Source: a virus. Taken from it: 64,000 nucleotides of DNA. The notes under the pieces are model-generated. The model saw nothing but the letters and a program-made list of their open reading frames with translations, made no database searches and was not told the DNA's origin. Of the stretch, positions 15,401-30,152 are shown piece after piece (the first letter of the stretch is position 1; every line of letters starts with the position of its first letter). Both the position numbers and the translations under genes were made by a program. The stretch covers positions 106,802-170,801 of the IMG/VR virus record IMGVR_UViG_3300030060_007423, one strand, 5' to 3'.

Positions 15401-15507
15401 TAGAATTGAAATAGAAATGTCAAATGTAACTGTTAAAGATTTTAACAATTGGCATGAAGGACTAAGTCCAATAGAATTATGGATGTATAATAAATTAATA
15501 AATAAAA

Positions 15508-15894
15508 ATGGCAAAGAAAAGTAAATATCAGAGAAGACGAGCTATCGAATGTAAGATAGTCGAAAAGAGTAAAAAGAATCCAGGTTATTGTAAGTATGAT
15601 ATTACAATACAGGAATTGGATGGAAAAGTACATACTCAACCAGCTTATGGTACAGATATGCAAGATGCATTATCCAGATTAATGAATACAGAAAGAACAA
15701 CAAAGATAGAAAAGAAATTAGAGAAAAATCCTTTAATATTCTTTCTTATGTGGTTAGGACTTATGGCATTGCCAGTTATATGGCATGGTGATATAACATA
15801 TACTCCTTGGTTTATATTGTATATGTTTGCTAGTTTTGCTGCAATGTTTTTATTCGCAGGATTGTGGCAAAGTTATTTGGAAAAGGGAAAGTAA
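15508..15894 (+). CDS. Membrane protein (two C-terminal TM helices)
   Basis: PAYGTDMQDALSRL then two hydrophobic segments. Confidence 0.6.
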   Translation: MAKKSKYQRRRAIECKIVEKSKKNPGYCKYDITIQELDGKVHTQPAYGTDMQDALSRLMNTERTTKIEKKLEKNPLIFFLMWLGLMALPVIWHGDITYTPWFILYMFASFAAMFLFAGLWQSYLEKGK

Positions 15895-16208
15895 TGAATT
15901 ATGTTCCAATACCTAAAGGTGCTGAGCCACCAATGTTGAGATTTGAAACGGATATGGAGTTTCATCAAGAATTATCAAAGTATGAACATGAAATTCATAT
16001 TAGAACATTATATGCAATTCAATACGCATATGATACAAATTTTGAAGATGATGTAACAATTGCATTTATGAATGATGAAGAGACTATACTAAGTGTACCA
16101 AAGGATTGTTGGAAAGAAAATCTAGAGAATACACTTAAGTATTTTATTGATATAGAAGATTACAAAAAATGTAAAGAAGTACAACAATTAATGGATAAAG
16201 TAAAATGA
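15894..16208 (+). CDS. Hypothetical protein with C-terminal UVR-like motif
   Basis: YFIDIEDYKKCKEVQQL; start ATG 15894 overlapping upstream stop. Confidence 0.55.
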   Translation: MNYVPIPKGAEPPMLRFETDMEFHQELSKYEHEIHIRTLYAIQYAYDTNFEDDVTIAFMNDEETILSVPKDCWKENLENTLKYFIDIEDYKKCKEVQQLMDKVK

Positions 16209-16510
16209 AATTGGATATTAACAAAATTGATTTAGACCAATTGGCTCATGATTTTAGAATGGAAAGTATAAAGTGGTATGATAAAGAATACTTTATATGG
16301 TTTGTCAAATCAGTGGTATTATGTAGAGATGTAAAGCAAACAGGTGTACCGTTTAGGCGAATGTACAAGAATGCTAATAACTTTATGTTAGTTAAAGATA
16401 AGAATACAGCTCTTCTTGATTATAGAAATAAAGGTCAAGATAACTGGGATTGTATACCTACACATCTTTTACATGGTGAAAAATATTATTTGTGTTGGAC
16501 ATATGAGTAG
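16205..16510 (+). CDS. Hypothetical protein
   Basis: Overlapping-coupled ORF. Confidence 0.5.
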   Translation: MKLDINKIDLDQLAHDFRMESIKWYDKEYFIWFVKSVVLCRDVKQTGVPFRRMYKNANNFMLVKDKNTALLDYRNKGQDNWDCIPTHLLHGEKYYLCWTYE

Positions 16511-16781
16511 ACGGGATAGATTTTATATTGTAATTAAGTGGCATTACAACCCAACAACAAATGAAGTAGGTAAAAGAAAAAAGCTACCAGTGTTGATGAT
16601 GGATTCAGATGGTAACCCGTTAGAGTTTGATACATTAACATCGGCAGAAGAATTTACAGAGATTATGAACTTCAATACTAATCAAGGATTTCATTATGAG
16701 ATACGAGAATTAGGAAAGAAGTACTTAAAGGTCAATAACAATAGTAGTAACAATGATGGATTTGATGACAGGTGCGGCTGA
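16503..16781 (+). CDS. Hypothetical protein (start reassigned to ATG 16503)
   Basis: MSRRDRFY...; overlaps upstream stop. Confidence 0.5.
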   Translation: MSRRDRFYIVIKWHYNPTTNEVGKRKKLPVLMMDSDGNPLEFDTLTSAEEFTEIMNFNTNQGFHYEIRELGKKYLKVNNNSSNNDGFDDRCG

Positions 16782-16823
16782 CCCCCGCCCGGCCCGGCGA
16801 AGTTCGCACATGCGATGTCGCAC
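16782..16823. repeat. GC-rich element, left arm of a long-range inverted repeat (partner 23318-23362)
   Basis: GCGAAGTTCGCACATGCGATGTCGCAC (16797-16823) vs reverse complement of 23318-23343, GCGAAGTCTCACATGCGATGCGGCAC. Confidence 0.7.
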
Positions 16824-16897
16824 ATCAAACCCTAACCAGAAAATTGCCTTTACAAGTTATCAACAACTTTACAAGGCCAGACAAGGAGCAACAAATT

Positions 16898-17119
16898 ATG
16901 GCATGGGAAGATTTTTGGTGGGATATAACAAAAGAAATAGAAGAGTTGGGAATCAAACGAGATTTTGACAAACAACTCAAAAAAATGGATATGCAAGACA
17001 AACACAAGTATCGTGACACACGGGACAGATGGAGTTATGCACTTGACAAAGTAAAGAAGAGATTATATGCAAAGCAAAATGGCAAGAAAACACGTAAAGA
17101 TGGCAACAACAAATCATGA
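16898..17119 (+). CDS. Hypothetical protein (start reassigned to ATG 16898)
   Basis: AAGGAG RBS upstream of MAWEDFWWD. Confidence 0.6.
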   Translation: MAWEDFWWDITKEIEELGIKRDFDKQLKKMDMQDKHKYRDTRDRWSYALDKVKKRLYAKQNGKKTRKDGNNKS

Positions 17120-17250
17120 TATAGAACCTTGGGCGAAAGTCCTGATGTTGGAAATCGACCAGTTATTAAAGCGTGATAATAGAGATGTAACAGCCAGTGT
17201 TAGGAAAGACCTGACACGTTTTATAGATTATATAACAAACGGAGACAAAA

Positions 17251-17493
17251 ATGGAAATGACTAAACAAATTATGGACGCCTTGTTGGCAAAGTATGAAGC
17301 AGACAAAATGAGAGCATTCGCTAATCTTCAAAATTATTTGACAAACCCAGCAGGTATTGGAGAACATCCAGATATAGTTGCGGAATGTGATAAACTAGTT
17401 AGTGATATTGATGATGCGATTGGCAAGATAGATACATTAAGACAATTATTTAGTAGTGGTGACCAGGGTGAGCAAAAAGAAGGCAATGAATAA
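17251..17493 (+). CDS. Conserved small phage protein
   Basis: YLTNPAGIGEHPDIV motif common in T4-like phages. Confidence 0.65.
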   Translation: MEMTKQIMDALLAKYEADKMRAFANLQNYLTNPAGIGEHPDIVAECDKLVSDIDDAIGKIDTLRQLFSSGDQGEQKEGNE

Positions 17494-17506
17494 TAGCGAT
17501 AGATAA

Positions 17507-17911
17507 ATGACAGAGAAACAACCAGACAAATTTGTAATACCAGATTGGTGTGTAGCTACATATGATTGGAATAGACTAGATATACGGATAGAATACGAGG
17601 AAGGTATGGTATATCAGTTTCATGGCGTACATCCAGATAGATGGACACAATGGAAGCAGGCTGATGATCCCCTATTCTATTATTATAGACACATCATGAC
17701 GTGTAGATGGACCTGTGAAAGCCATCCCAACTGGTCTCCTGTGTCATTACCGGTAGAAGTGGCAGGAAATGCCAGTGAATCCTCTAGTCAAAGTGATAGT
17801 GAAGCACAAGAGAATCAAATGGCTGAAAAAACTATGAGTGTGACTAGGAAGGAGCCCATTTCTGGCAGTCTGGATGATACTCATGAGCACGACACAAGTG
17901 TGGCAAAGTAA
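17507..17911 (+). CDS. KTSC-domain-like protein with low-complexity tail
   Basis: YDWNRLDIRIEYEEGMVYQFHGV...WKQAD fits the KTSC pattern Y..L.V.F..G..Y.Y..V. Confidence 0.55.
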   Translation: MTEKQPDKFVIPDWCVATYDWNRLDIRIEYEEGMVYQFHGVHPDRWTQWKQADDPLFYYYRHIMTCRWTCESHPNWSPVSLPVEVAGNASESSSQSDSEAQENQMAEKTMSVTRKEPISGSLDDTHEHDTSVAK

Positions 17912-18030
17912 TCGTTAGATAGACTATCCGGCATGGCTAGACTCACGATAAGAGTGATGGATGGTATGTCAGATTTGCCACTGGTCGTGCCACATTGTCA
18001 TGGAAAAAAGTTGTGAAAATATTTTTTTTT

Positions 18031-18053
18031 CCCAATTATTCTAGTTATATTTA
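18031..18053 (+). promoter_or_regulatory. CCCAA-N8-GTTATATTTA promoter
   Basis: CCCAA-ttattcta-GTTATATTTA. Confidence 0.7.
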
Positions 18054-18084
18054 TAGTATAATAATGGTTAAAAAATATAATACT

Positions 18085-18261
18085 ATGAATGAAAAAAATC
18101 ACTTAGAAAATCTTTATGACGTTTATCTTTACTGTCCATCTATCGACTCTGCAAAGGTCTGTACTGTGGAAGCAACTCACTACACTAATGCTAAGACAAA
18201 AGCTTTGGATATGTATCCTGGTTATGTATTGCTTGAGGATCAACTGTCTACACAATGTTAA
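18085..18261 (+). CDS. Small hypothetical protein
   Basis: ATG downstream of promoter (ATG 18064 also possible). Confidence 0.5.
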   Translation: MNEKNHLENLYDVYLYCPSIDSAKVCTVEATHYTNAKTKALDMYPGYVLLEDQLSTQC

Positions 18262-18333
18262 TAACTTTGACAATATTGTTAATAACTTTACGTAAAAGTA
18301 TAGCATAAAACCCAATAAATCTAGTTATATTTA
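18256..18333 (+). promoter_or_regulatory. Two TGTTAATAAC boxes + CCCAA-N8-GTTATATTTA promoter
   Basis: Boxes 18256-18265 and 18277-18286; CCCAA 18311-18315; GTTATATTTA 18324-18333. Confidence 0.7.
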
Positions 18334-18386
18334 TAATATAATTGGTTCGGATAGAAATTAAAAATTAAAACAAAAAAACGTCGCTT

Positions 18387-19592
18387 ATGAAAAATGTAAT
18401 CTTAAAAGCTGGTCTTAACGAGAGTGGTAAACCAGTATTGACTGACAAGGTTGGCAATCAGTTTGAATGTCCTGTAAAGGATAAAGCCAACAAACAAAAA
18501 TTAACGTGGGCTGTTAAAAAAGAAGCCTATGTAAAAGTAATAATGAAGGAGGGCGGAGCCATGTCCTACTCAGTATCTAATAGTAGTACTGAAAAGGATT
18601 GGACTAAAGATGCCACGTCTATATTGACAGACCAGTGGTTGAATAAACCTGCTGCTAATGTACCTGCTGAACAGGCTGAGGTAATGGCATTCATTCAGAA
18701 ATCTCCTGAGTTAAAACCAGATACTCTTAAGATGCAAGACCTTAAATGGAAATATCTTGTTAGGTCTGCAATGAGAGGTAAAAATATTATGATGACTGGT
18801 CCTGCAGGATGTGGTAAAACTATGGCAGCTAAAACTGTTGTGAACGCATTAGACAGACCAGAATTTTATTTCAACCTTGGGGCAACTCAAGATCCTAGAG
18901 CTACCTTAATTGGTAATGTCCACTTCAATAAAGAGAGTGGTACGTTCTTCTCTGAATCAATGTTTGTGAAAGCAATACAGACTGAGAATGCTGTAATACT
19001 CATGGATGAGCTTTCACGTGCTCACCCCGAGGCTTGGAATATATTAATGACTGTATTAGACGAAGGTCAGAGATACTTAAGGTTAGATGAAGCTGATGGC
19101 TCTCCAACTATTAAAGTAGCTCCAGGTGTAACATTTATCGCTACTGCCAATATAGGTAATGAATATACAGCGACAAGAGTTATGGACCGAGCGTTATTAG
19201 ACAGGTTTATTATTGTAGAGATGGATACTCTAAATGCTTCTGAGGAGTTTGAGTTGTTAACAAAACTATTTCCTAATGTGGATACTAAAACAGTTAACGC
19301 CATATCTGAAATTGCTCATGCTACTAGAGTTGAGGTTAAGAGTGAAGTTGCGAGAATCTCTACTTCTATTTCTACCAGAGCTTGTGTTGAAATGACTAGC
19401 CTTGTTTACGACGGGTTTAGTTTAACAGAAGCTGCTGAGGTTATTATGTATCCACAATACGATGATGCGGGTGGAGCTGATAGCGAAAGAACATTCGTAA
19501 AACAACTTGTACAGAAATTCTGTGACGATGGTACCGATGAAGATTTATTCAACACTGAAGATGTTGACGGTGCTGATGACAACCAGCAATAA
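18387..19592 (+). CDS. MoxR/CbbQ/NirQ-type AAA+ ATPase
   Basis: GPAGCGKT Walker A, ILMDE Walker B, IATAN sensor I, DRALLDRF Arg finger. Confidence 0.9.
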   Translation: MKNVILKAGLNESGKPVLTDKVGNQFECPVKDKANKQKLTWAVKKEAYVKVIMKEGGAMSYSVSNSSTEKDWTKDATSILTDQWLNKPAANVPAEQAEVMAFIQKSPELKPDTLKMQDLKWKYLVRSAMRGKNIMMTGPAGCGKTMAAKTVVNALDRPEFYFNLGATQDPRATLIGNVHFNKESGTFFSESMFVKAIQTENAVILMDELSRAHPEAWNILMTVLDEGQRYLRLDEADGSPTIKVAPGVTFIATANIGNEYTATRVMDRALLDRFIIVEMDTLNASEEFELLTKLFPNVDTKTVNAISEIAHATRVEVKSEVARISTSISTRACVEMTSLVYDGFSLTEAAEVIMYPQYDDAGGADSERTFVKQLVQKFCDDGTDEDLFNTEDVDGADDNQQ

Positions 19593-19610
19593 GCGACGAT
19601 TGCTAAGAAG

Positions 19611-19642
19611 GGGGGTGGACATTTAGAGCCATCCCCTATTCT
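19611..19642 (+). terminator. Probable terminator hairpin
   Basis: GGGGGTGG (19611-19618)/CCATCCCC (19629-19636) then TATTCT. Confidence 0.55.
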
Positions 19643-19644
19643 AT

Positions 19645-19721
19645 TGTTAATAACTTTGTTAATAACTTTAGAAAATAACTATGAAATAATTTTTATTTCC
19701 CAACAATAATAGTTATATTTA
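19645..19721 (+). promoter_or_regulatory. Two tandem TGTTAATAAC boxes + CCCAA-N8-GTTATATTTA promoter
   Basis: Boxes 19645-19654 and 19657-19666; CCCAA 19699-19703; GTTATATTTA 19712-19721. Confidence 0.7.
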
Positions 19722-19756
19722 TATTATAAATAACGGATTAAACTAATAGAGATACT

Positions 19757-21766
19757 ATGACAAATTATTCAAGCTTTTGGTTAGATGACAATTTTGACAA
19801 TGACATTGACATTCTGACAGGTGAATCAATCGTGAAACCTGGTAAGGACCTCATCAAGCTAGCCGGTTATCAAAGAGCAATCGCTAACTTTGTTAACATC
19901 GTAACAGGTAAACACGTTCCTGTTAAATTCAAACAAAATGGTAATAGCTATACTGATGGCAAATCTATCGTGATTAGCTCAAGTCTAAAGGACAAGGATT
20001 TCGACCCTGCTGTTGGACTTGCTCTTCACGAAGGTAGCCACATATTGTTGTCTGACTTTCAATTCCTTAAAGACTTAGAGAGCCACATACCTGCTGACAT
20101 TACAAATACAGTAATGATTAAATATGATTATGATAGATACAACGCTAACTATCATATCTTAAATAATCTAAAAGATTTGTTAAACATTGTTGAGGACAGA
20201 CGTATTGACAACTACGTGTTTAAGTCTGCTCCTGGTTATAAAGGTTACTACCACTCAATGTATGACAAATACTTTAACTCTAAAATTATAGACAAAGGAT
20301 TGGCAAGTTCTGAATTTAGAATCCCAACCTTTGAAGCTTATATGTTCCGTATCTGTAACATTACTAATAACCATAGAGACCTCAACGCATTACCTGGTCT
20401 AAGAAAGATATGGAATCTAATGGACTTAAAGAATATCGGTGATGTAAAGAGTACTGAAGAGGCCTTTCAAATTGCTTGTGAAATATATAAAGTAATTGAA
20501 GAAAACATTGAGGCTCCTAAACCAGAGGATAATGATTGTGATGGCAATTGTGATGGTGATGGTAATGAACAACAAACTGAGAATAGAGATGGCGGTACTC
20601 CTAAAACACCAGAAGGAGAATCTGATGACGATGGTTCTACTACAACAGGTACTGATTGTACTAATGGTAATACCACATCAACTATTGACTTAGAGGATTT
20701 AACTGACAAACAAAAACAACAGTTAAAGAAAGCTATTCAAAAGCAAAAGAGTTTCCAGGATGGAGATATTAAGAAAGGCGGAATGAGTAAGAAAGATGCT
20801 AGTTCATTAAATGCTATTCAGCAAGGAGATGTTGAGGTTACTAATGTTGGTAATGGAGTAGACGGATGGAGAAAGACTAGTGGTGGTACTAACTGTATTG
20901 TTATTAATGGTATTACTAAAACATTGATTGATGAGAATCCATTTGACGTGTTTATCAACAAAGACTGGTATGGTAGTAGAATGGAGCAGTTTCAACACTC
21001 TGTAGACAAAGGACTTGTATTAGGACAAAAACTTGGTAGAAAGTTACAGGTTAGAAACGAGGAGAACAGCCTTAGATACACACGATTGAATACAGGAAAG
21101 ATAGATAAAAGATTGATTGCTAGTTTAGGCTATGGTGCTGAGAGTGTATTTGAACAAGTATTTACTAGCAGCCATAACGATGCCAACGTACATATCTCAG
21201 TAGATGCTAGTGGTAGTATGAGTGGCCGTAGATATAACAAGGCTATGACTACCTGCGTGGCTATAGCTAAAGCAGCCAGCATGGTTGGTAATCTAAACGT
21301 TCAGATAAGCTTCCGTACTACAGTGGAAAGTGGTGGCACTAACACACCATGTATAGTGATAGCGTATGACTCTAGAAAAGACAAGATCGTAACGATTAAA
21401 TCACTATTCAAATACTGTGTAACTCTAGGGACAACACCAGAAGGACTATGTTTCGAGGCCATTCAAAAACACATGGTACAGAGCAATGGTAGTATGGATA
21501 GCTACTTTATAAACCTCTCAGATGGAGAACCTTATTTTGAGAACCGAGATATTCAATATTGGGGCCAGACAGCTGCTAGCCATACCGCAAAACAAGTGAA
21601 AAACATGCGTGGTGGTGGTATAGAGGTACTGAGCTACTATATAGATGGTGGTAGCGACGTTAGTGCCCAATTTAAGACTATGTATGGTGCCTCTAGCGCT
21701 AGTATAGATACAAACAACCTTACCCAACTGGCCACTACTCTAAATAAATTATTCCTTGGCCAGTAG
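19757..21766 (+). CDS. CobT-like protein: HExxH domain + acidic linker + VWA domain (MoxR partner)
   Basis: ALHEGSH, NIVEDRRID; acidic linker; MIDAS DASGSM, GTTPEG, LSDGEP. Confidence 0.85.
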   Translation: MTNYSSFWLDDNFDNDIDILTGESIVKPGKDLIKLAGYQRAIANFVNIVTGKHVPVKFKQNGNSYTDGKSIVISSSLKDKDFDPAVGLALHEGSHILLSDFQFLKDLESHIPADITNTVMIKYDYDRYNANYHILNNLKDLLNIVEDRRIDNYVFKSAPGYKGYYHSMYDKYFNSKIIDKGLASSEFRIPTFEAYMFRICNITNNHRDLNALPGLRKIWNLMDLKNIGDVKSTEEAFQIACEIYKVIEENIEAPKPEDNDCDGNCDGDGNEQQTENRDGGTPKTPEGESDDDGSTTTGTDCTNGNTTSTIDLEDLTDKQKQQLKKAIQKQKSFQDGDIKKGGMSKKDASSLNAIQQGDVEVTNVGNGVDGWRKTSGGTNCIVINGITKTLIDENPFDVFINKDWYGSRMEQFQHSVDKGLVLGQKLGRKLQVRNEENSLRYTRLNTGKIDKRLIASLGYGAESVFEQVFTSSHNDANVHISVDASGSMSGRRYNKAMTTCVAIAKAASMVGNLNVQISFRTTVESGGTNTPCIVIAYDSRKDKIVTIKSLFKYCVTLGTTPEGLCFEAIQKHMVQSNGSMDSYFINLSDGEPYFENRDIQYWGQTAASHTAKQVKNMRGGGIEVLSYYIDGGSDVSAQFKTMYGASSASIDTNNLTQLATTLNKLFLGQ

Positions 21767-21774
21767 AGGGTACA

Positions 21775-21929
21775 GGCGACTCGCCACAGGCTATCTAAGG
21801 CCGTGTAGTGAACTAGCCAAAGAAAAAATCTGCAAGTGAATGCAGTGGGACTATTTCTTGTTAACAGCAAGATATGTGTGTGTAGCATTGTGCATTAGTC
21901 CATCTTTGTACAGGAGACGATTTTTTCTT
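21775..21929 (+). ncRNA. Candidate structured RNA/DNA element (multibranch)
   Basis: 11-bp closing stem 21820-21830/21919-21929 enclosing several nested hairpins; intergenic. Confidence 0.45.
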
Positions 21930-21998
21930 GTATATAAGTGATAGTAGTAGAAGAGTGTTTAACACTATAAAAGTATAAATTAATTAAATATAGATAAT

Positions 21999-22394
21999 AT
22001 GAAAGACAACACAGAGAAATGGAAGTATAGTTATCCATATCAGACAAGGATAGCAACTATTGAACAGGAATATGGTGAACTAGGACAACAGGTACCTGCA
22101 GGATTCTACTTCAGGGATGGCGAGATAATTCGAGCTCTGCTCGATTTTGTGAAACAAAGTGGACCCTGTACATGGACTGAAATGAGCATGGAATACCACT
22201 ACCTGTTCACAAACATGGAATATCATCCAGTCAATCACCGTGGTGGTAGTTTCAGTAGTGGTCACTATCGTAGCCTAATGACACCAAGACGTAGAAGGAT
22301 AGGCAATGGCAATTATGAATATATCCGTAAAGGAGATGATGGTCTATACCGATACCATACACATGCTCTGGGTTATAGTGGTGTTAATTGTTAA
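21999..22394 (+). CDS. Hypothetical protein (possible winged helix)
   Basis: 131-aa ORF with A-rich leader. Confidence 0.5.
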   Translation: MKDNTEKWKYSYPYQTRIATIEQEYGELGQQVPAGFYFRDGEIIRALLDFVKQSGPCTWTEMSMEYHYLFTNMEYHPVNHRGGSFSSGHYRSLMTPRRRRIGNGNYEYIRKGDDGLYRYHTHALGYSGVNC

Positions 22395-22444
22395 TAACTT
22401 TTTCATCAATAATTTTTATTTCCCAACTATTATGGTTATATTTA
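22389..22444 (+). promoter_or_regulatory. TGTTAATAAC box + CCCAA-N8-GTTATATTTA promoter
   Basis: Box 22389-22398; CCCAA 22422-22426; GTTATATTTA 22435-22444. Confidence 0.7.
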
Positions 22445-22470
22445 ATTATCAAATAAAAACAAACTAGATT

Positions 22471-23025
22471 ATGTCAGCTATCTGTAAATCATGTCAGTGC
22501 ACTATTCCTGCTGGTCGGGTTAGTCTTGGCTATAATGTATGTGTTGATTGTAGTACCGAAGAGGCAGTGGCCTGTGTAGATATTACATATCACAAAACTG
22601 GTAATACTATTCAAATAACAGACCAAGACACTGCTAGGCGAATCAATAAGTTGGCCTCACGTAGTGGTTATGGTATCATGCGTGGCCTTCGTGGTGGCAA
22701 GTCATCAACTGACAAGACTACTCTGTCCACTACTCCTCGCAATGCTAAACCATTTCGTGAATACACTCATAGTGACCTAGAGCGTGTCCTTGAGGTTGCT
22801 ATTGATTGGATGGAGATGGATTCCCGTGACCGTGCCATTGCGCATGTCGAGAATGCACTATCTAACAAAATGATTAGTGGTATACAACGCCGACGCATTA
22901 TGGAGATACTTGCAACCATGTTCCCAGAACCTGTAGTTGAGGAGTCAAGTACTGTACAGGAAACAATAGACCCTGAAATCGAATTTACATTTCGTAACTG
23001 GCGTAATAGTAGAATCTATAAATAA
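22471..23025 (+). CDS. Protein with N-terminal DksA/TraR-like C4 zinc finger
   Basis: CKSCQCTIPAGRVSLGYNVCVDCS resembles the TraR/DksA finger C..C...IP..R......C..C. Confidence 0.6.
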   Translation: MSAICKSCQCTIPAGRVSLGYNVCVDCSTEEAVACVDITYHKTGNTIQITDQDTARRINKLASRSGYGIMRGLRGGKSSTDKTTLSTTPRNAKPFREYTHSDLERVLEVAIDWMEMDSRDRAIAHVENALSNKMISGIQRRRIMEILATMFPEPVVEESSTVQETIDPEIEFTFRNWRNSRIYK

Positions 23026-23317
23026 AACTATATGAAAACAATAATTGGCAAAATCAAATCATGGCATGCCTACTGGGTATGGATTGAACAGGAAAAAATA
23101 AAAGCTGCTATACATACGTGTAGTGGTACAGGTTTATATTAAAAACAAGATTATGATTAACTATTTACTTTGTGGATTTATATTCACACTAACTATGGAA
23201 CTTATTAACTCACAACTCAGGTTGAATGTTGACTGGCCAATGCGGACGTTAATGGTCCTTGCATGGCCGTTGTGTCTGGTTGTTTGGTTGTATCACTTCA
23301 TAAAGGAATTGTAATGG

Positions 23318-23362
23318 GTGCCGCATCGCATGTGAGACTTCGCAGGGGTGGTGGCGTGGCGG
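23318..23362. repeat. GC-rich element, right arm of the long-range inverted repeat (partner 16782-16823)
   Basis: GTGCCGCATCGCATGTGAGACTTCGC followed by a G-rich tract. Confidence 0.7.
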
Positions 23363-23371
23363 CCGTGAAAT

Positions 23372-23445
23372 GGACCAGTAGCTCAGCTGGATAGAGCAAC
23401 AGCCTTCTAAGCTGTAGGTCATAGGTTCGAATCCTATCTGGTTCA
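23372..23445 (+). tRNA. tRNA-Arg (TCT)
   Basis: Cloverleaf: GGACCAG/CTGGTTC acceptor, GCTC/GAGC D arm, ACAGC-CTTCTAA-GCTGT anticodon arm, ATAGG-TTCGAAT-CCTAT T arm; CCA not encoded. Confidence 0.95.
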
Positions 23446-23593
23446 CAAAGGATAAATTATATGGTAGAATTTTTGAAACATTTTTTTGGAGTATGTGGAG
23501 AACCACATCCCAGTGTACTAACTATCCTAATGGGTACGCCTGTTGTGGGATACATAATTTACAATATAAGACAATATATAAAAGGAAAGAATA

Positions 23594-23833
23594 ATGACAG
23601 ATAAGCAATGGAGAAAGTTTGGCGAGATACAATATCTTAGAGGACGACTAGATGAAATGTTTAAGATTGATACTTTACTGGATTTTGATATGAGTGGTAT
23701 GAGAAGAATAGATGCAAGGATTGCAAAGTATATGGACAAACTCAAATCAGTAGATGAAATGACTTATGAACTATATTTGATAGAGCGTGATAATATATAC
23801 CATAAGATACGTAAATTAACAAAGGATTGTTAA
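23594..23833 (+). CDS. Hypothetical protein
   Basis: 79-aa ORF, AAGGA RBS. Confidence 0.5.
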   Translation: MTDKQWRKFGEIQYLRGRLDEMFKIDTLLDFDMSGMRRIDARIAKYMDKLKSVDEMTYELYLIERDNIYHKIRKLTKDC

Positions 23834-23905
23834 TAACTTTTTTACATATTATATGAAAATAACTATGAAAATATTTTTATTTCCCAAATATTCTAGTTAT
23901 ATTTA
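23828..23905 (+). promoter_or_regulatory. TGTTAATAAC box + CCCAA-N8-GTTATATTTA promoter
   Basis: Box 23828-23837; CCCAA 23883-23887; GTTATATTTA 23896-23905. Confidence 0.7.
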
Positions 23906-23945
23906 TATATAAATAAATAACTAATACTAATTAAAAAATAACACT

Positions 23946-24473
23946 ATGCCTAGAACTAAAAAGCCTAATGAAGTAATTTACGGAATTGAAATTACTAAAC
24001 CTCATTCATCAGAAATGTATTCTCACAACCACATGGTTGCTGACGAAATGAAAGCCAATATTCTCAACAAATGGAATGCTTTGATATATGGAATTGACCC
24101 TGAAACGGATTGGGAAGATTTTGCAGATAATGAAAGTACTGTTGAGCTTCAAAAATTAGTTTGCTTTTCTGGCTATGGTAGCGGTTATACTTTAGGTGAT
24201 GTAGATAAAGAGTTTAGAAATGAACTGGAGAATATGCAGAACTATGCTATTCACGAAGAATACTCTTACGGTTGTTTTTCAGGACTTCTACCTAGAACTA
24301 GTTTTATGATGGTTGGTCACGGTTGGTCAAAGCATGACTACCACAATAAAGGAGCGGAATCTAATCTTTCTCCTCATGCACCTGTTCCATGTTCAAAAGA
24401 ATTGGATATTGAAATGGCAACTGAATCTGAAAACTTTGAATTTTTAACTGGCGAAGCCTTAATAAACCACTAG
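23946..24473 (+). CDS. Hypothetical protein
   Basis: 175-aa ORF after promoter. Confidence 0.6.
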   Translation: MPRTKKPNEVIYGIEITKPHSSEMYSHNHMVADEMKANILNKWNALIYGIDPETDWEDFADNESTVELQKLVCFSGYGSGYTLGDVDKEFRNELENMQNYAIHEEYSYGCFSGLLPRTSFMMVGHGWSKHDYHNKGAESNLSPHAPVPCSKELDIEMATESENFEFLTGEALINH

Positions 24474-24478
24474 GAGAT

Positions 24479-25141
24479 ATGAATGAAACACCGTTTACAA
24501 AAACACTACAGAGAATAACAGAAGCTGAAGAACATTATGGAGAATGGATTGCTCCAAACTTACAGGCAGATGGTTGGACAGGTACATATAGTCTTGCAGT
24601 TGACCAAATATCAAAAGACATACCTCAAACTAAAAATGGTTGGAATTGGTCAAATATACTTGCAGATAGTAAAGGTCGTGGTGTAGAGTTGGCAATAAAG
24701 GTTAAAGAAGATGGTTGGGGTAAATGGGAATACCATCCACATGTTGAGAGTGTAAAGTATTATATTGCCAAGTTAAAACAAAAAGGTATAAAGGTTTATG
24801 ACTGGCAAATCATTAATGATAGCTGGGCCGTAAATGCATTAGAACGTTTAGGGCTTGAAGAAGTAACAAGGTGGTGTCAAGAAAAGGGTGGTACTCTCAG
24901 GTTCAAAGACCCTCACATGGTAAACTATAAAACCTATTACACATTTCATATAAGAACTGGCTATGTTCGTAGAACACAACATGGACCTAATCCTTGGGGT
25001 AGTGGAAAACGGTGGACATGTTATCAAATTGCTGGTACTAACAGAAAAAAGATATATAATAACTTTCCAAGAATGGTTCACAAAGCTTTAAGGTCTATTG
25101 AAAGATACCAACAAAATAACTGGGATACATTAGATATATAA
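24479..25141 (+). CDS. Hypothetical Trp-rich protein
   Basis: 220-aa ORF, AGGAG RBS. Confidence 0.6.
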   Translation: MNETPFTKTLQRITEAEEHYGEWIAPNLQADGWTGTYSLAVDQISKDIPQTKNGWNWSNILADSKGRGVELAIKVKEDGWGKWEYHPHVESVKYYIAKLKQKGIKVYDWQIINDSWAVNALERLGLEEVTRWCQEKGGTLRFKDPHMVNYKTYYTFHIRTGYVRRTQHGPNPWGSGKRWTCYQIAGTNRKKIYNNFPRMVHKALRSIERYQQNNWDTLDI

Positions 25142-25156
25142 TTAAAAATAATAAAA

Positions 25157-25540
25157 ATGGTAAAAAAGAAAAAGCATAAATTCAAAATAGGCGACAACGT
25201 AACATTCAAGTTCTTTGATGGTGGTACATACACTGGCGTTGTTGACAAGCTTTCATATATGGGAGAGCTTACAGGAAATGTAAACTATCAGTTACCACAA
25301 ATTAGAGTAGCTGTTAAAAATAAAAATGTCAAGTACCCTTACACTTATTATCCCATTAGCGAGCATTATGTACTTAAACGCAATGGAAAGGTTAACCCTA
25401 ATGCAATCAACCTTCCAAGCAAAGATAATAAGCCCAAGAGGAAGGCTAGTAGTAAAATTGCAAAGACTAATAATAAGTCTGAATTGCAACAAGCAATCGA
25501 TAAACAAAAAGAATTCTTAAATCACAATTATGAAAACTAA
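25157..25540 (+). CDS. Hypothetical protein (KOW/SH3-like N-terminus)
   Basis: KFKIGDNVTFKF...YTGVV. Confidence 0.55.
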   Translation: MVKKKKHKFKIGDNVTFKFFDGGTYTGVVDKLSYMGELTGNVNYQLPQIRVAVKNKNVKYPYTYYPISEHYVLKRNGKVNPNAINLPSKDNKPKRKASSKIAKTNNKSELQQAIDKQKEFLNHNYEN

Positions 25541-28418: not shown

Positions 28419-28606
28419 TGATAATTCCAGAACAATACAAAAATGATTTGGATAAAATATATGAAAGAACTAAAAACTCTAATGAAAAAATGTTAATGGA
28501 ATTCAAAAAGTATTTTATGAATGTTGAACCAAAGGAGTTAAATTCAGACTGGGCATGGGTAGCAACACAATGTTATCATGTATATAAAAATAAATCTGAC
28601 CGCTAG
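28415..28606 (+). CDS. Hypothetical protein
   Basis: 63-aa coupled ORF ending at the tmRNA 5' boundary. Confidence 0.45.
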   Translation: MMIIPEQYKNDLDKIYERTKNSNEKMLMEFKKYFMNVEPKELNSDWAWVATQCYHVYKNKSDR

Positions 28607-28822
28607 TACTTATGTCAGCTGCATTCTTGGACCCGGGTTCGAATCCCGGCATCTCCACTAAAACCCATTATGATATGGGGATGACACGGATTTGACAGGA
28701 TGATAAGAGCATAAGGAAGGTCACCGCAACAACTGGCGAACAAGTTGAAATGGCGATGGCAGCGTAGTACGCTCCCTGACCCGAACGGTATAAAAGAGGT
28801 CATGTCGTAAAAACCTCGGAGG
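28596..28822 (+). ncRNA. ssrA: Circularly permuted (two-piece) tmRNA; tag (A)GEQVEMAMAA*; outer boundaries approximate
   Basis: T arm CCGGG-TTCGAAT-CCCGG and 3' acceptor strand CATCTCC-A (28633-28657) precede the 5' strand GGGGATG (28677-28683) with G3.U70; D-loop GGATTTGAC; helix 2 pairings; tag ORF 28735-28767. Confidence 0.9.
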
Positions 28823-28842
28823 ATGGTAGGTAAACTATAATT

Positions 28843-29586
28843 ATGAGCATAGAAACAAAATATTTTTCAATTGACGATTTATATAACGTAGATAACAAAT
28901 CTTCGTTTTGGAAATTTATAGAGGGCGAAGTAAAAGTTGCTTTAAGTAAATCTTCAATGTCAAGTTCAAAAAAAGCAGATGCTCTTAATCTATTTAAGAA
29001 ACAATATATTAAAAAGTTTTTTATAAGACATACTAAATCACCAAGTGATTATAATAAACCTTGGGATTTAGATAAATATGACCTAGAGTCAATTAAAAAT
29101 AATACAGATGGTCAATGGGCACCACCACCTAATGCTGATGACTATAGGTTTGATTTAGAAAATGCTCAATATGTAATTGAAAAATTTATATGGATGCAAA
29201 TACACCCAGATGATAGAAGGGATTTATTTGATAATGATATTGATAAATTTGATGACTGGGTTGTAACATTATCTGAATCACAAATAGATGAAGTTGTACA
29301 AAAAATTCAAAATGGTGAAAGACTAGGTGATCTTGATTATGAAAGTATAAAGGATTCACTATATGAACTTGATGATGGTACAATCAGAGTATTTAAGATA
29401 GACGGATTAATGATTATGTCTTCACTAAATAAAGATTCGCTGGAAACAGCATGCGTAAAAATCTTTATGAAGAAAGGTATAACATTTAAGTATAGAACAA
29501 CTGAAAACTATAAAGGAAAAACTGTACACTCCTATATATTTAGGATTGACGGACGTAATGACAATAAAAATGACAATATGTCATAG
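28843..29586 (+). CDS. Hypothetical protein
   Basis: 247-aa ORF. Confidence 0.6.
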   Translation: MSIETKYFSIDDLYNVDNKSSFWKFIEGEVKVALSKSSMSSSKKADALNLFKKQYIKKFFIRHTKSPSDYNKPWDLDKYDLESIKNNTDGQWAPPPNADDYRFDLENAQYVIEKFIWMQIHPDDRRDLFDNDIDKFDDWVVTLSESQIDEVVQKIQNGERLGDLDYESIKDSLYELDDGTIRVFKIDGLMIMSSLNKDSLETACVKIFMKKGITFKYRTTENYKGKTVHSYIFRIDGRNDNKNDNMS

Positions 29587-29646: not shown

Positions 29647-30152
29647 AAGTGTACTGAGTAGGCACAAAATTAAAATTATCTAAGGAGATTAATTATGGGA
29701 AATTATTTTTTACATGAGCGGTTGTTTCCAACCGACTTATTTTTCAAAAACTTTTTTGATACACAAACTGAGTTTCAATCGTTTGCAGATGTTAAGCCAC
29801 AATATCCAGTTGATATTATGGTAACAGATTATGCACTAACGTTTGATATTGCATGTGTTGGTTTGGACAAAAAAGATATAACATTAGACGTTACTGATAA
29901 TACCTTACGGGTTATCTATGAAAAACCAAACATTGAATCAAATCCATCTGATGAAGATGCAGGTGAATATATCCATAGAGGTATTACTCGGAAGAGTTTT
30001 AATATGGGTTGGAAAATTGCACCACGGTATGATTTGAGTCAAATAGAAGCAGTTATGAAAAACGGATTGTTAAGTATAACAATTCCATTGTTTGAAGAAG
30101 CAAAACCAAAAACAATTAAAATTAAATAAATAGTGTTTTACTCAGTACACTT
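29647..30152. repeat. Inverted repeat enclosing hsp20 (arms 29647-29665 and 30133-30152)
   Basis: AAGTGTACTGAGTA/TACTCAGTACACTT 14 bp perfect, extendable with G.U pairs. Confidence 0.8.
29695..30129 (+). CDS. Small heat-shock protein (Hsp20/alpha-crystallin)
   Basis: YPVDI, IACVGLDKKDI, YIHRGITRKSF, AVMKNGLLSITIP, KPKTIKIK. Confidence 0.93.
   Translation: MGNYFLHERLFPTDLFFKNFFDTQTEFQSFADVKPQYPVDIMVTDYALTFDIACVGLDKKDITLDVTDNTLRVIYEKPNIESNPSDEDAGEYIHRGITRKSFNMGWKIAPRYDLSQIEAVMKNGLLSITIPLFEEAKPKTIKIK

Follow-up and report, generated by a model that had tools for sequence, protein, structure and literature searches.

Two GC-rich arms and the interval between them

The window, the whole 64,000-nucleotide stretch of viral DNA analysed here, belongs to a 170,801-bp contig in which all genes lie on the + strand. 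The phage that carries this DNA is AT-rich and marine. Two GC-rich segments in opposite orientation (the arms) enclose an interval of about 6.5 kb, and the features at the locus are listed below.

16503..16781, + strand: small gene of 92 aa, function unassigned; its 3' end runs into the left arm
16774..16823, + strand: left GC-rich arm; C-rich outer flank, then GCGAAGT / CACATGCGATG / GCAC
16824..16897, + strand: AT-rich remainder of the left spacer, conserved; ends with the ribosome-binding site of the next gene
16898..17119, + strand: first gene inside the interval, 73 aa, function unassigned
18010-18050, 18311-18342, 19678-19718 and 22401-22441, + strand: CCCAA promoter cassettes
18387..19592, + strand: CobS/MoxR-like AAA+ ATPase (cobS)
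19757..21766, + strand: CobT-like VWA-domain protein (Pfam CobT_C, PHROG cobT-type)
23153..23314, + strand: small hydrophobic ORF of 53 aa, the last gene inside the interval
23318..23366, - strand: right GC-rich arm, counterpart of the left arm in inverted orientation
23372..23446, + strand: tRNA-Arg, anticodon TCT (Rfam RF00005, 73 bits), with the right arm as its 5' leader

Both arms are intergenic and each begins at a stop codon, as the preliminary description of this DNA had stated. The 5' end of the left arm overlaps the final codons and the TGA stop (16779-81) of the upstream gene, and the right arm fills the 57-nt spacer between a TAA stop (23312-14) and tRNA-Arg(TCT), which it adjoins, ending 5 nt upstream of position 23372. 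The motifs read exactly as first quoted: GCGAAGT-TCG-CACATGCGATG-TC-GCAC on the left (16797-16823) and, as the reverse complement, GCGAAGT-CT-CACATGCGATG-CG-GCAC on the right (23318-23343). Blocks of 7, 11 and 4 nt are identical in the two arms and are separated by diverged spacers of 2-3 nt, such that the spacing of block 1 to block 2 differs by 1 nt. The arms have a fixed polarity: on the strand that reads inward, each has its C-rich flank on the outer side. In the right flank, a Chi-like reading of GGTGGTGG was rejected because it has no counterpart in the left arm.

The similarity reaches outward from these blocks over 49 aligned columns (16774-16823 against 23318-23366), being highest in the inner core and lowest at the outer ends. 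The inverted local alignment scored 35, against 13.6±2.4 (maximum 26) for 5000 composition-preserving shuffles, none of which reached 35; aligned in direct orientation, the arms scored 13. The arm pair is real, and its inverted similarity is far beyond chance. The arms had been described as the most GC-rich patches noticed, and they are indeed the top two 30-mers (0.87 and 0.77) of the whole contig; the third-ranked patch is coding. The preliminary description had also considered that more, randomly oriented copies might exist. We found two copies in total in the 170.8-kb contig, inverted relative to each other.

The AAA-VWA pair reported inside the interval consists of an AAA+ MoxR/CobS-like protein and a CobT-like VWA protein; the latter matches Pfam CobT_C at 20.7 bits, just below the 21-bit cut-off, and PHROG cobT-type families at 1e-7 to 2e-8. 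All four CCCAA promoter cassettes reported there were found as well (families D1, D4, D6 and D9), and copies outside the interval lie at ~7425, 10958, 11502, 14727, 23862, 32364 and 51654. For the proteins beside the arms, ESM-Atlas yielded viral hypothetical clusters only, plus one weak lead, zf-dskA_traR for a 184-aa protein.

The interval was said to be compositionally distinct, and this holds for GC content (37.9% vs 32.8% in the genome), for CpG (observed/expected 0.61 vs 0.39) and for codon choice (GC3 0.32 vs about 0.18-0.19). The interval is the maximum among all 6.58-kb windows of the contig, with the GC peak at 16799. The arms did not prove to be the borders of this domain, however. 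Its edges are fuzzy: the GC3 rise starts ~0.3-1.2 kb before the left arm (~1.1 kb before it in the relative L002) and decays slowly past the right arm, and a milder rise over the syntenic region, spanning the tRNA, is present in the arm-less relatives L011 and L024. The suggestion of a replication origin or a Ter-like fork trap was likewise not supported, given the uniform gene orientation and a cumulative GC skew that rises monotonically over all 170.8 kb, with no switch and no change at either arm.

Conservation and clade-specific insertion of the arms

The paired motif was to be sought in related phages, and every close relative that we found carries both arms at the same positions. Positions 16756-16842, which include the left arm, are invariant in seven sequences, and the left spacer as far as 16878 has only three variable columns among these seven. 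The right-arm core (23318-23343) is invariant in four sequences; the G/T-rich outer flank that follows it (23344-23371) has 5-6 substitutions and a 3-nt indel among four sequences. Region-wide, the window diverges from L002 by ~13% on average. Judged from these alignments, the arms are under purifying selection in all close relatives. Three contigs or assemblies crossing both sites (window/X1, L002 and Ga0209232) carry both arms together, and pieces from run X2 reach both. A metagenome scan for the arms returned 7 true hits, every one of them at one of these two sites, and 5 further chance hits from an unrelated 53%-GC organism, and an exact-pattern scan of IMG/VR matched only the contig of a close relative. 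Because they are non-random, unique in the genome, fixed in polarity and under purifying selection in close relatives, the arms are probably a functional paired element and not a product of chance.

Distant relatives keep the gene order and lack the arms. Their flanking genes lie ~3 nt apart, and each arm is therefore a clade-specific spacer insertion. On the left side, the homologue of the 73-aa gene abuts the preceding gene in other phages, with no spacer, and the final ~10 codons of the 92-aa gene are specific to the arm-carrying clade. On the right side, arm-less relatives likewise have the small hydrophobic ORF directly before tRNA-Arg, which begins 3 nt past the upstream stop codon (stop-TCT-tRNA), and they keep the interior order of cobS, a g22471-like gene, the small hydrophobic ORF and tRNA-Arg. 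None of the relatives examined outside the arm-carrying clade has a GC-rich leader before tRNA-Arg, and arm-like GC patches in 80 cobS-bearing loci did not rise above the null. Coding readings of the left arm (stop readthrough, or an N-terminal extension of g16898) were rejected because relatives carry frame-breaking indels before the ATG. Borders of a recombination module at the arms were rejected, too: identity profiles against relatives show no break there. A loose contig end at 16674 hints at an arm-less variant junction, which was not retrieved from IMG/VR.

Imperfect inverted repeats of ~50 nt edge a compositionally distinct block, and both are insertions when compared with phages that pack the same genes tightly. 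A transposable element might have left them, as its terminal inverted repeats or as footprints: a 6.5-kb non-autonomous element with cargo, or a small GC-rich MITE-like element in two copies. We consider this origin largely refuted and highly improbable. No transposase or recombinase was found in the contig (rve gave no match), no target-site duplication is visible at the borders, and the similarity is weakest at the outer tips and strongest at the inner core. The two copies occupy the same two sites throughout, with none elsewhere in the contig or at other loci in the records of four relatives (80-232 kb), and a scan of bacterial and archaeal genomes gave 3 chance-level hits and no bacterial source. 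Furthermore, arm-less relatives keep the interior genes in order beside tRNA-Arg, with no empty site joining the outer flanks, so the interior was not delivered as a unit.

Inversion sites had also been offered in the preliminary description, and inverted repeats flanking a multi-kb segment could be the crossover sites of a site-specific DNA inversion of the Mu G-segment or P1 C-segment type. This is the least probable of the explanations, and we give it almost no weight. The remark that no recombinase is visible was borne out, in that Resolvase, Phage_integrase and rve (PF00239 and PF00589 included) had no match in the 170.8-kb contig, itself ~80% complete. All 11 junctions observed in seven relatives (7 left, 4 right) have one configuration, and X1 contigs cross both arms colinearly. 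No inverted, strand-changing joint occurs in the Logan contigs of four runs, although such contigs can hide rare variants. Finally, the arms are intergenic and no reading frame would be switched; inversion would also move ten genes onto an otherwise empty - strand.

Predicted RNA pairing and a DNA-site alternative

A long-range RNA helix is predicted to bracket cobS within the interval. The segment CGTCGCTTAT (18379-18388), which takes in the AT of the cobS ATG, pairs with ATAAGCGACG (19589-19598), which takes in the TAA stop. The start and ribosome-binding region of cobS pairs in this manner with sequence just past the stop, both in the window and in sequence-divergent relatives. Over 60 distinct loci, matched cobS flanks gave -12.3 kcal/mol and mismatched flanks -7.7 kcal/mol (Mann-Whitney p = 1e-13), and the true partner flank ranked first in 18 of the 60. 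The helix covaries across these 60 distinct relatives, which shows that long-range RNA pairing does occur in this phage family. Gene-bracketing helices are not general in the genome; bracketing as a genome-wide habit was rejected, as only 3 of 84 genes stood above the 1% control level.

Since every gene of the contig is transcribed from the + strand, the two arms would be reverse complementary in transcripts. Their predicted + strand duplex has 47 pairs and -73.9 kcal/mol, compared with -41.6±5.0 kcal/mol for shuffles (about 6 sd; 0 of 500 as good), and relative to the local folds it gains a net -23 to -29 kcal/mol. Each of the four natural variants of the right arm retains a predicted -70.6 to -77.1 kcal/mol. 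In each of them the + strand duplex is stronger than its - strand equivalent by 7-12 kcal/mol, an asymmetry that is weak because the numbers of wobble pairs are similar (4 on + vs 3 on -). The variable right flank remains G/T-rich, as expected for the partner of a C/G-rich strand that allows G-U pairs. Natural right-flank variants preserve the duplex energy no better than random mutants (p = 0.45 and 0.23), and the left arm never varies, so that the pair yields no covariation among the sequences found. Other non-coding GC-rich patches of this genome are RNA, and two of those in the top-ranked list lie within the tmRNA. Given the stop-TCT-tRNA arrangement of relatives, the right arm was inserted exactly at a point of RNA processing. 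Both observations count for an RNA role, as does the purifying selection on the arms.

We reasoned that the arms most plausibly function by long-range RNA-RNA pairing, and we put the probability that they act as an RNA duplex linking an operon spacer to the tRNA-Arg leader at a little over one in three (about 0.37). In this model, an operon-internal spacer (the left arm) would pair with the 57-nt 5' leader of tRNA-Arg (the right arm), within a single read-through transcript in cis or between separate transcripts in trans; no terminators were predicted near the arms. The resulting duplex would be GC-rich, imperfect and about 50-60 bp long, and no other in this AT-rich transcriptome would match its strength. 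Double-strand-specific processing or protection would be its likeliest consequence: at the g16473/g16898 junction, and again immediately before the tRNA, the mRNA would be marked or cut by the duplex, and the maturation of tRNA-Arg would thereby be coupled to what becomes of the 10-gene message that the arms enclose. We infer that the arms pair in vivo with consequences of this kind; the direct support is that they are complementary, unique in the genome, non-coding, under purifying selection and clade-specific insertions, and that a covarying long-range helix exists in the same family.

Several observations speak against RNA pairing of the arms. They are separated by 6.5 kb and four promoter cassettes, the shared 7+11+4-nt blocks with diverged spacers resemble protein recognition, and the left spacer is invariant well past the paired part and contains a unique pair of direct repeats. 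The missing covariation, the right-flank variants that do no better than random mutants, and the rarity of gene-bracketing helices in the genome count against it as well. No RNase III gene was found in the contig, so the RNA model needs a host enzyme. The public runs that contain the stretch come from 13 studies and include no RNA run. A more specific form of the RNA model can be put forward only tentatively: the 57-nt GC-rich leader of tRNA-Arg may be a dedicated pairing partner of the intergenic site 6.5 kb upstream, and the duplex, a panhandle in cis or one formed in trans after RNase P releases the leader, would fix the termini of a 10-gene early message, or its stability.

It is improbable, in our view, that the two arms work independently, as local RNA structures or regulatory sites whose similarity records nothing but their descent from an inverted duplication. 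Invariance of the left arm extends past the shared part, and the surroundings differ, with direct repeats and a DnaA-like box on the left and the tRNA on the right, as would suit separate roles. However, neither arm alone folds locally better than shuffles on either strand (z = -0.19 and -1.43), and a search of 16600-23600 with Rfam 15 (E<=5) matched the tRNA only; at gathering thresholds, only tRNA and tmRNA matched. The inverted orientation precludes the same RNA element on one transcribed strand, and the joint occurrence of the arms described above also argues against independence.

A close rival to the RNA duplex is that the arms are a pair of polar DNA sites in opposite orientation, bound by one sequence-specific protein of the phage or the host. 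Possible roles include nick or cut sites at the two boundaries of a long terminal repeat or first-injected segment, looping or insulator sites, and fork barriers. We regard such sites as a serious possibility, yet a doubtful one. The three exact blocks with diverged spacers between them, the strict invariance of the arms in relatives, their fixed polarity and the promoter-dense interval, the GC-richest stretch of the contig, all fit protein-bound DNA. The left spacer in addition contains two CTTTACAAG direct repeats (16848-16856 and 16867-16875) around a DnaA-box-like TTATCAACA, a repeat pair that is unique in the genome. On the other hand, the 1-nt difference in block spacing and the freely variable outer flank of the right arm count against this reading, and none of the proteins inside or beside the interval matches a DNA-binding, nuclease or recombinase family that would supply a candidate binding protein. 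The constant skew across both arms, the compositional island that is not exactly arm-bounded and recurs in arm-less relatives, and the unbroken identity profiles weigh in the same direction. Contig-level depth inside relative to outside the arms, a coarse ratio taken from the contigs of Logan assemblies for four runs (X1-X4), was ~1.4-1.9 for X1 and X2 but did not exceed 1 for X3 or X4, and mixtures of strains confound it.

Implications and comparison with known systems

If the arms pair as RNA, tRNA processing and operon expression would be linked through a long-range mRNA architecture in a large dsDNA phage. With the family-wide covarying cobS helix added, kilobase-range RNA helices would become a recurrent regulatory device of one abundant group of uncultured marine phages. 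Should the leader be a dedicated partner, the maturation of a phage tRNA would directly control an operon, and the arms would form a kilobase-scale mRNA bracket in a dsDNA phage, built on the same logic as the single-gene bracket around cobS. As DNA sites bordering a terminal repeat or first-injected segment, the arms would provide a sequence signature by which physical genome ends could be located in metagenomic phage assemblies. Under either reading, the pair is a sharply defined, selectable, 50-nt experimental target.

Phages Mu and P1 contain invertible segments (G and C, respectively) with the serine invertases Gin and Cin. The arms resemble their borders as inverted repeats of tens of bases that flank a few-kb segment of a phage genome, but they come without an invertase, a second orientation has not been seen, the genes lie on a single strand, and the borders contain neither tail-fibre nor split genes. 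Yeast mitochondrial GC clusters and MITE-type elements are multi-copy and variable in position. Like them, the arms are short intergenic inserts of very high GC content in an AT-rich genome; unlike those elements, they occur in exactly two copies, fixed in position and invariant. In phages lambda (nutL/nutR) and HK022 (putL/putR), similar cis elements lie inverted a few kb apart around a control region. They are inverted because they sit in divergent operons, and both are read in the same RNA sense; here, transcription is unidirectional and the arms are read in opposite senses.

In bacterial rRNA operons, long-range processing stems flank the 16S and 23S rRNA and are substrates of RNase III. 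Like the arms, these stems consist of two complementary stretches of non-coding sequence on one transcript strand, with a functional unit of kilobases between them; they are far more GC-rich and stable than their surroundings and adjoin tRNA genes that need end-processing. The difference is that the arms bracket 6.5 kb of translated mRNA with internal promoters and not a structural RNA, and that their pairing is a prediction from sequence.

A further parallel is the icaR mRNA of Staphylococcus aureus, in which the 5'UTR is reported to base pair with the 3'UTR (PMC3868564). The GC-rich arms differ in that they overlap no ribosome-binding site or start codon, bracket ten genes and not one, and are five times longer. 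The cobS helix comes closer to icaR: a start and ribosome-binding region is predicted to pair with sequence beyond the stop codon of the same gene, and the pairing covaries across relatives.

The arm pair in its genomic setting

The window covers 106,802-170,801 of a linear-class virus contig of 170,801 bp (~80% complete, 32.8% GC; IMG/VR). The preliminary description had placed two GC-rich inverted sequences, the arms, around a compositionally distinct interval of ~6.5 kb, and both sequences that it quoted were found where it had put them.

16774-16823, left arm, non-coding, operon spacer
18379-18388 and 19589-19598, cobS start region and bases directly past its stop codon
23318-23366, right arm, inverted, non-coding, tRNA-Arg leader
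23372-23446, tRNA-Arg(TCT)
28566-28858, permuted, two-piece tmRNA

The inverted similarity covers 49 aligned columns. Three of its blocks are exact (7, 11 and 4 nt); the outer part of each arm, rich in C at the left and in G at the right, matches less well, and the similarity is absent from the outer and inner flanks beyond these columns. The local alignment score was 35, compared with 13.6±2.4 (maximum 26) for 5000 shuffles keeping each patch's composition, and the direct orientation scored 13. The arms are indeed GC-rich extremes, holding the top two 30-mers of the entire contig; the third patch codes for a Gly-rich peptide. Both begin at a stop codon, and the left spacer carries frame-breaking indels in relatives. 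We found no further copies in the contig.

Both arms recur in L002, an IMG/VR contig with a 97% identical CobS, at a spacing of 6,693 nt (6,521 nt in the window). A metagenome scan added seven copies, spread over five contigs and never away from these two sites; on one of the contigs both arms are present, 6,531 nt apart. The window and L002 differ by ~13% on average over 16-23.5 kb; however, 16756-16842 (left arm and surroundings) was invariant in 7/7 sequences and the right-arm core in 4/4. Variation was confined to the right outer flank (5-6 substitutions and a 3-nt indel), which stayed G/T-rich throughout. The synonymous sites of this genome are 81% A+T, so a patch of 87% GC that remains unchanged is under selection.

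The armless relatives L011, L024 and L007 (CobS 61-66% identical) retain the order cobS, g22471-like gene, small hydrophobic ORF, tRNA-Arg and tmRNA. Their tRNA-Arg starts 3 nt past a stop codon, where the window has a 57-nt GC-rich spacer. Homologues of the genes just inside (L097-L100) and just outside (L102-L104) the left arm likewise adjoin their neighbours directly, with no spacer. Nothing arm-like was present in four armless records of 80-232 kb or among the GC-rich patches of 80 loci, and bacterial genomes gave nothing beyond chance. Since armless relatives keep the gene order without spacers, each arm is a clade-specific insertion into an older, tightly packed arrangement. That the two are independent elements of common origin was ranked third and seems improbable. 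Overall, the arms form a genuine and unique pair that is functional and specific to its clade.

Several strain-level junctions cluster in the ~100 nt that precede the left arm (16670-16745): a Logan contig of public run X1 diverges at 16674, contigs of run X2 break at 16670-16694, and the upstream gene loses its homology to the L102 copy near 16745. Compared with the window, L002 and L088 have a ~170-nt insertion separating the 184-aa gene from the small hydrophobic ORF (23026-23152), which lengthens a short ORF.

Composition and DNA-level readings

The interval is as distinct as had been claimed. Its GC content (37.9%) is the maximum among all 6.58-kb windows of the contig (peak at 16,799), CpG observed/expected is 0.61 versus 0.39, and GC3 is 0.32 versus 0.18-0.19 elsewhere. 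Eight of the 14 genes with GC3 >= 0.30 (203 genes in all) fall within 16,473-23,314, exactly the best ten-gene GC3 run. The arms are not the cause, because the rise takes in a gene outside the left arm and occurs in armless relatives: in L011 and L024 the syntenic 9 kb, tRNA included, has a milder rise. The rise decays slowly past the tRNA, and in L002 it begins ~1.1 kb earlier. The GC3-rich island (15500-25500) takes in the stretch from cobS to tRNA-Arg, with the milder counterpart at 7400-16300 in L011. The island is a regional trait of this genome part in the wider family; its source may be an exchange of genes with phages richer in GC, or else the expression class to which these genes belong.

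None of the specific functions first proposed for the pair was demonstrated. An origin or terminus is disfavoured: cumulative GC skew rises monotonically from one contig end to the other, with no skew or strand switch. Inversion sites, ranked last, are highly improbable, as the contig has no Resolvase or Phage_integrase match and 11/11 arm junctions in relatives share one configuration; a 7.8-kb contig of X1 is colinear across both arms, and four runs contained no strand-change joint. Transposon footprints, ranked fourth, are very unlikely, given that no transposase, rve included, was matched, that neither a target duplication nor another copy is present, and that armless relatives keep the interior order; from that synteny, the 6.5 kb was not delivered as a unit. 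Identity profiles without discontinuity at the arms led us to reject a module boundary. Contig-level read depths, which bear on a terminal repeat or physical genome ends, disagreed between runs.

The arms could instead be paired DNA sites for a putative protein, terminal-repeat borders included. Their block-wise identity fits protein recognition well, and so do extra invariant motifs of the left spacer, where TTATCAACA is flanked by two copies of CTTTACAAG, an arrangement with no other instance in the genome. We ranked this reading a close second, at a little under one chance in three.

Predicted pairing at the RNA level

The contig's ORF mass is essentially all on the + strand; with transcription unidirectional, the arms are complementary in RNA. 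Their predicted duplex has 47 pairs and -73.9 kcal/mol (-41.6±5 for shuffles), a gain of 23-29 kcal/mol over local folds. All four right-arm variants preserve it in prediction (-70.6 to -77.1 kcal/mol), with the duplex 7-12 kcal/mol better on the + than on the - strand, but their energies were not significantly better than those of random mutants, and the left arm never varies. A duplex joining the operon spacer to the tRNA-Arg leader is our first-ranked, tentative reading, at a little over one chance in three.

We also observed pairing around cobS, a MoxR-type AAA+ gene, whose start region (CGTCGCTTAT) matches the bases directly past its stop codon (ATAAGCGACG). The change in L002 is compensatory (AGTCGCTTAT pairing with ATAAGCGACT), and more distant relatives keep the pairing with quite different sequences (among them CACTACATGA with TCATGTAGTG, AATCACCAAAT with ATTTGGTGATT, GAGGTTACCA with TGGTAACCTC). 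Over 60 distinct loci, matched flanks averaged -12.3 kcal/mol versus -7.7 for mismatched ones (p = 1e-13), and the true partner ranked top in 18. The helix covaries family-wide, in dozens of relatives (L002-L081). Selected long-range mRNA helices therefore exist in this phage family, and this one supports the RNA-level reading of the arms independently, from inside the interval.

Gene-bracketing helices are not a general trait; among 84 genes, just cobS, a 247-aa ORF (28843-29586) and hsp20 (29695-30129) stood out; for the latter two the predicted flank pairing, at -20.2 and -21.5 kcal/mol, exceeds the 1% level of the controls. Many relatives carry GC-rich hairpin-forming sequences just after cobS (19593-19756 in the window; L012, L014-L019, L029), for example GGTCTCCCCCGGGAGGGGGG in L015 and L017-L019, unrelated in sequence to the arms.

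The region's RNA genes are the tRNA-Arg and the tmRNA. Compensatory T-stem changes between close relatives (CATAGG...CCTATC versus CGAAGG...CCTTCC in L002, 15201-15275) place the tRNA under structural selection. The tmRNA (Rfam RF04321, 65.6 bits), 4-5 kb downstream, is kept in L011, L024, L007, L029, L030 and L103, its tag varying slightly (GEQVEMAMAA, GTQVEMAMAA, GKQVEYAMAA, GEHVNMAMAA). Every public run containing the stretch is a marine or viral metagenome (13 studies), and the nearest cultured phage has a CobS-like protein just 53% identical.
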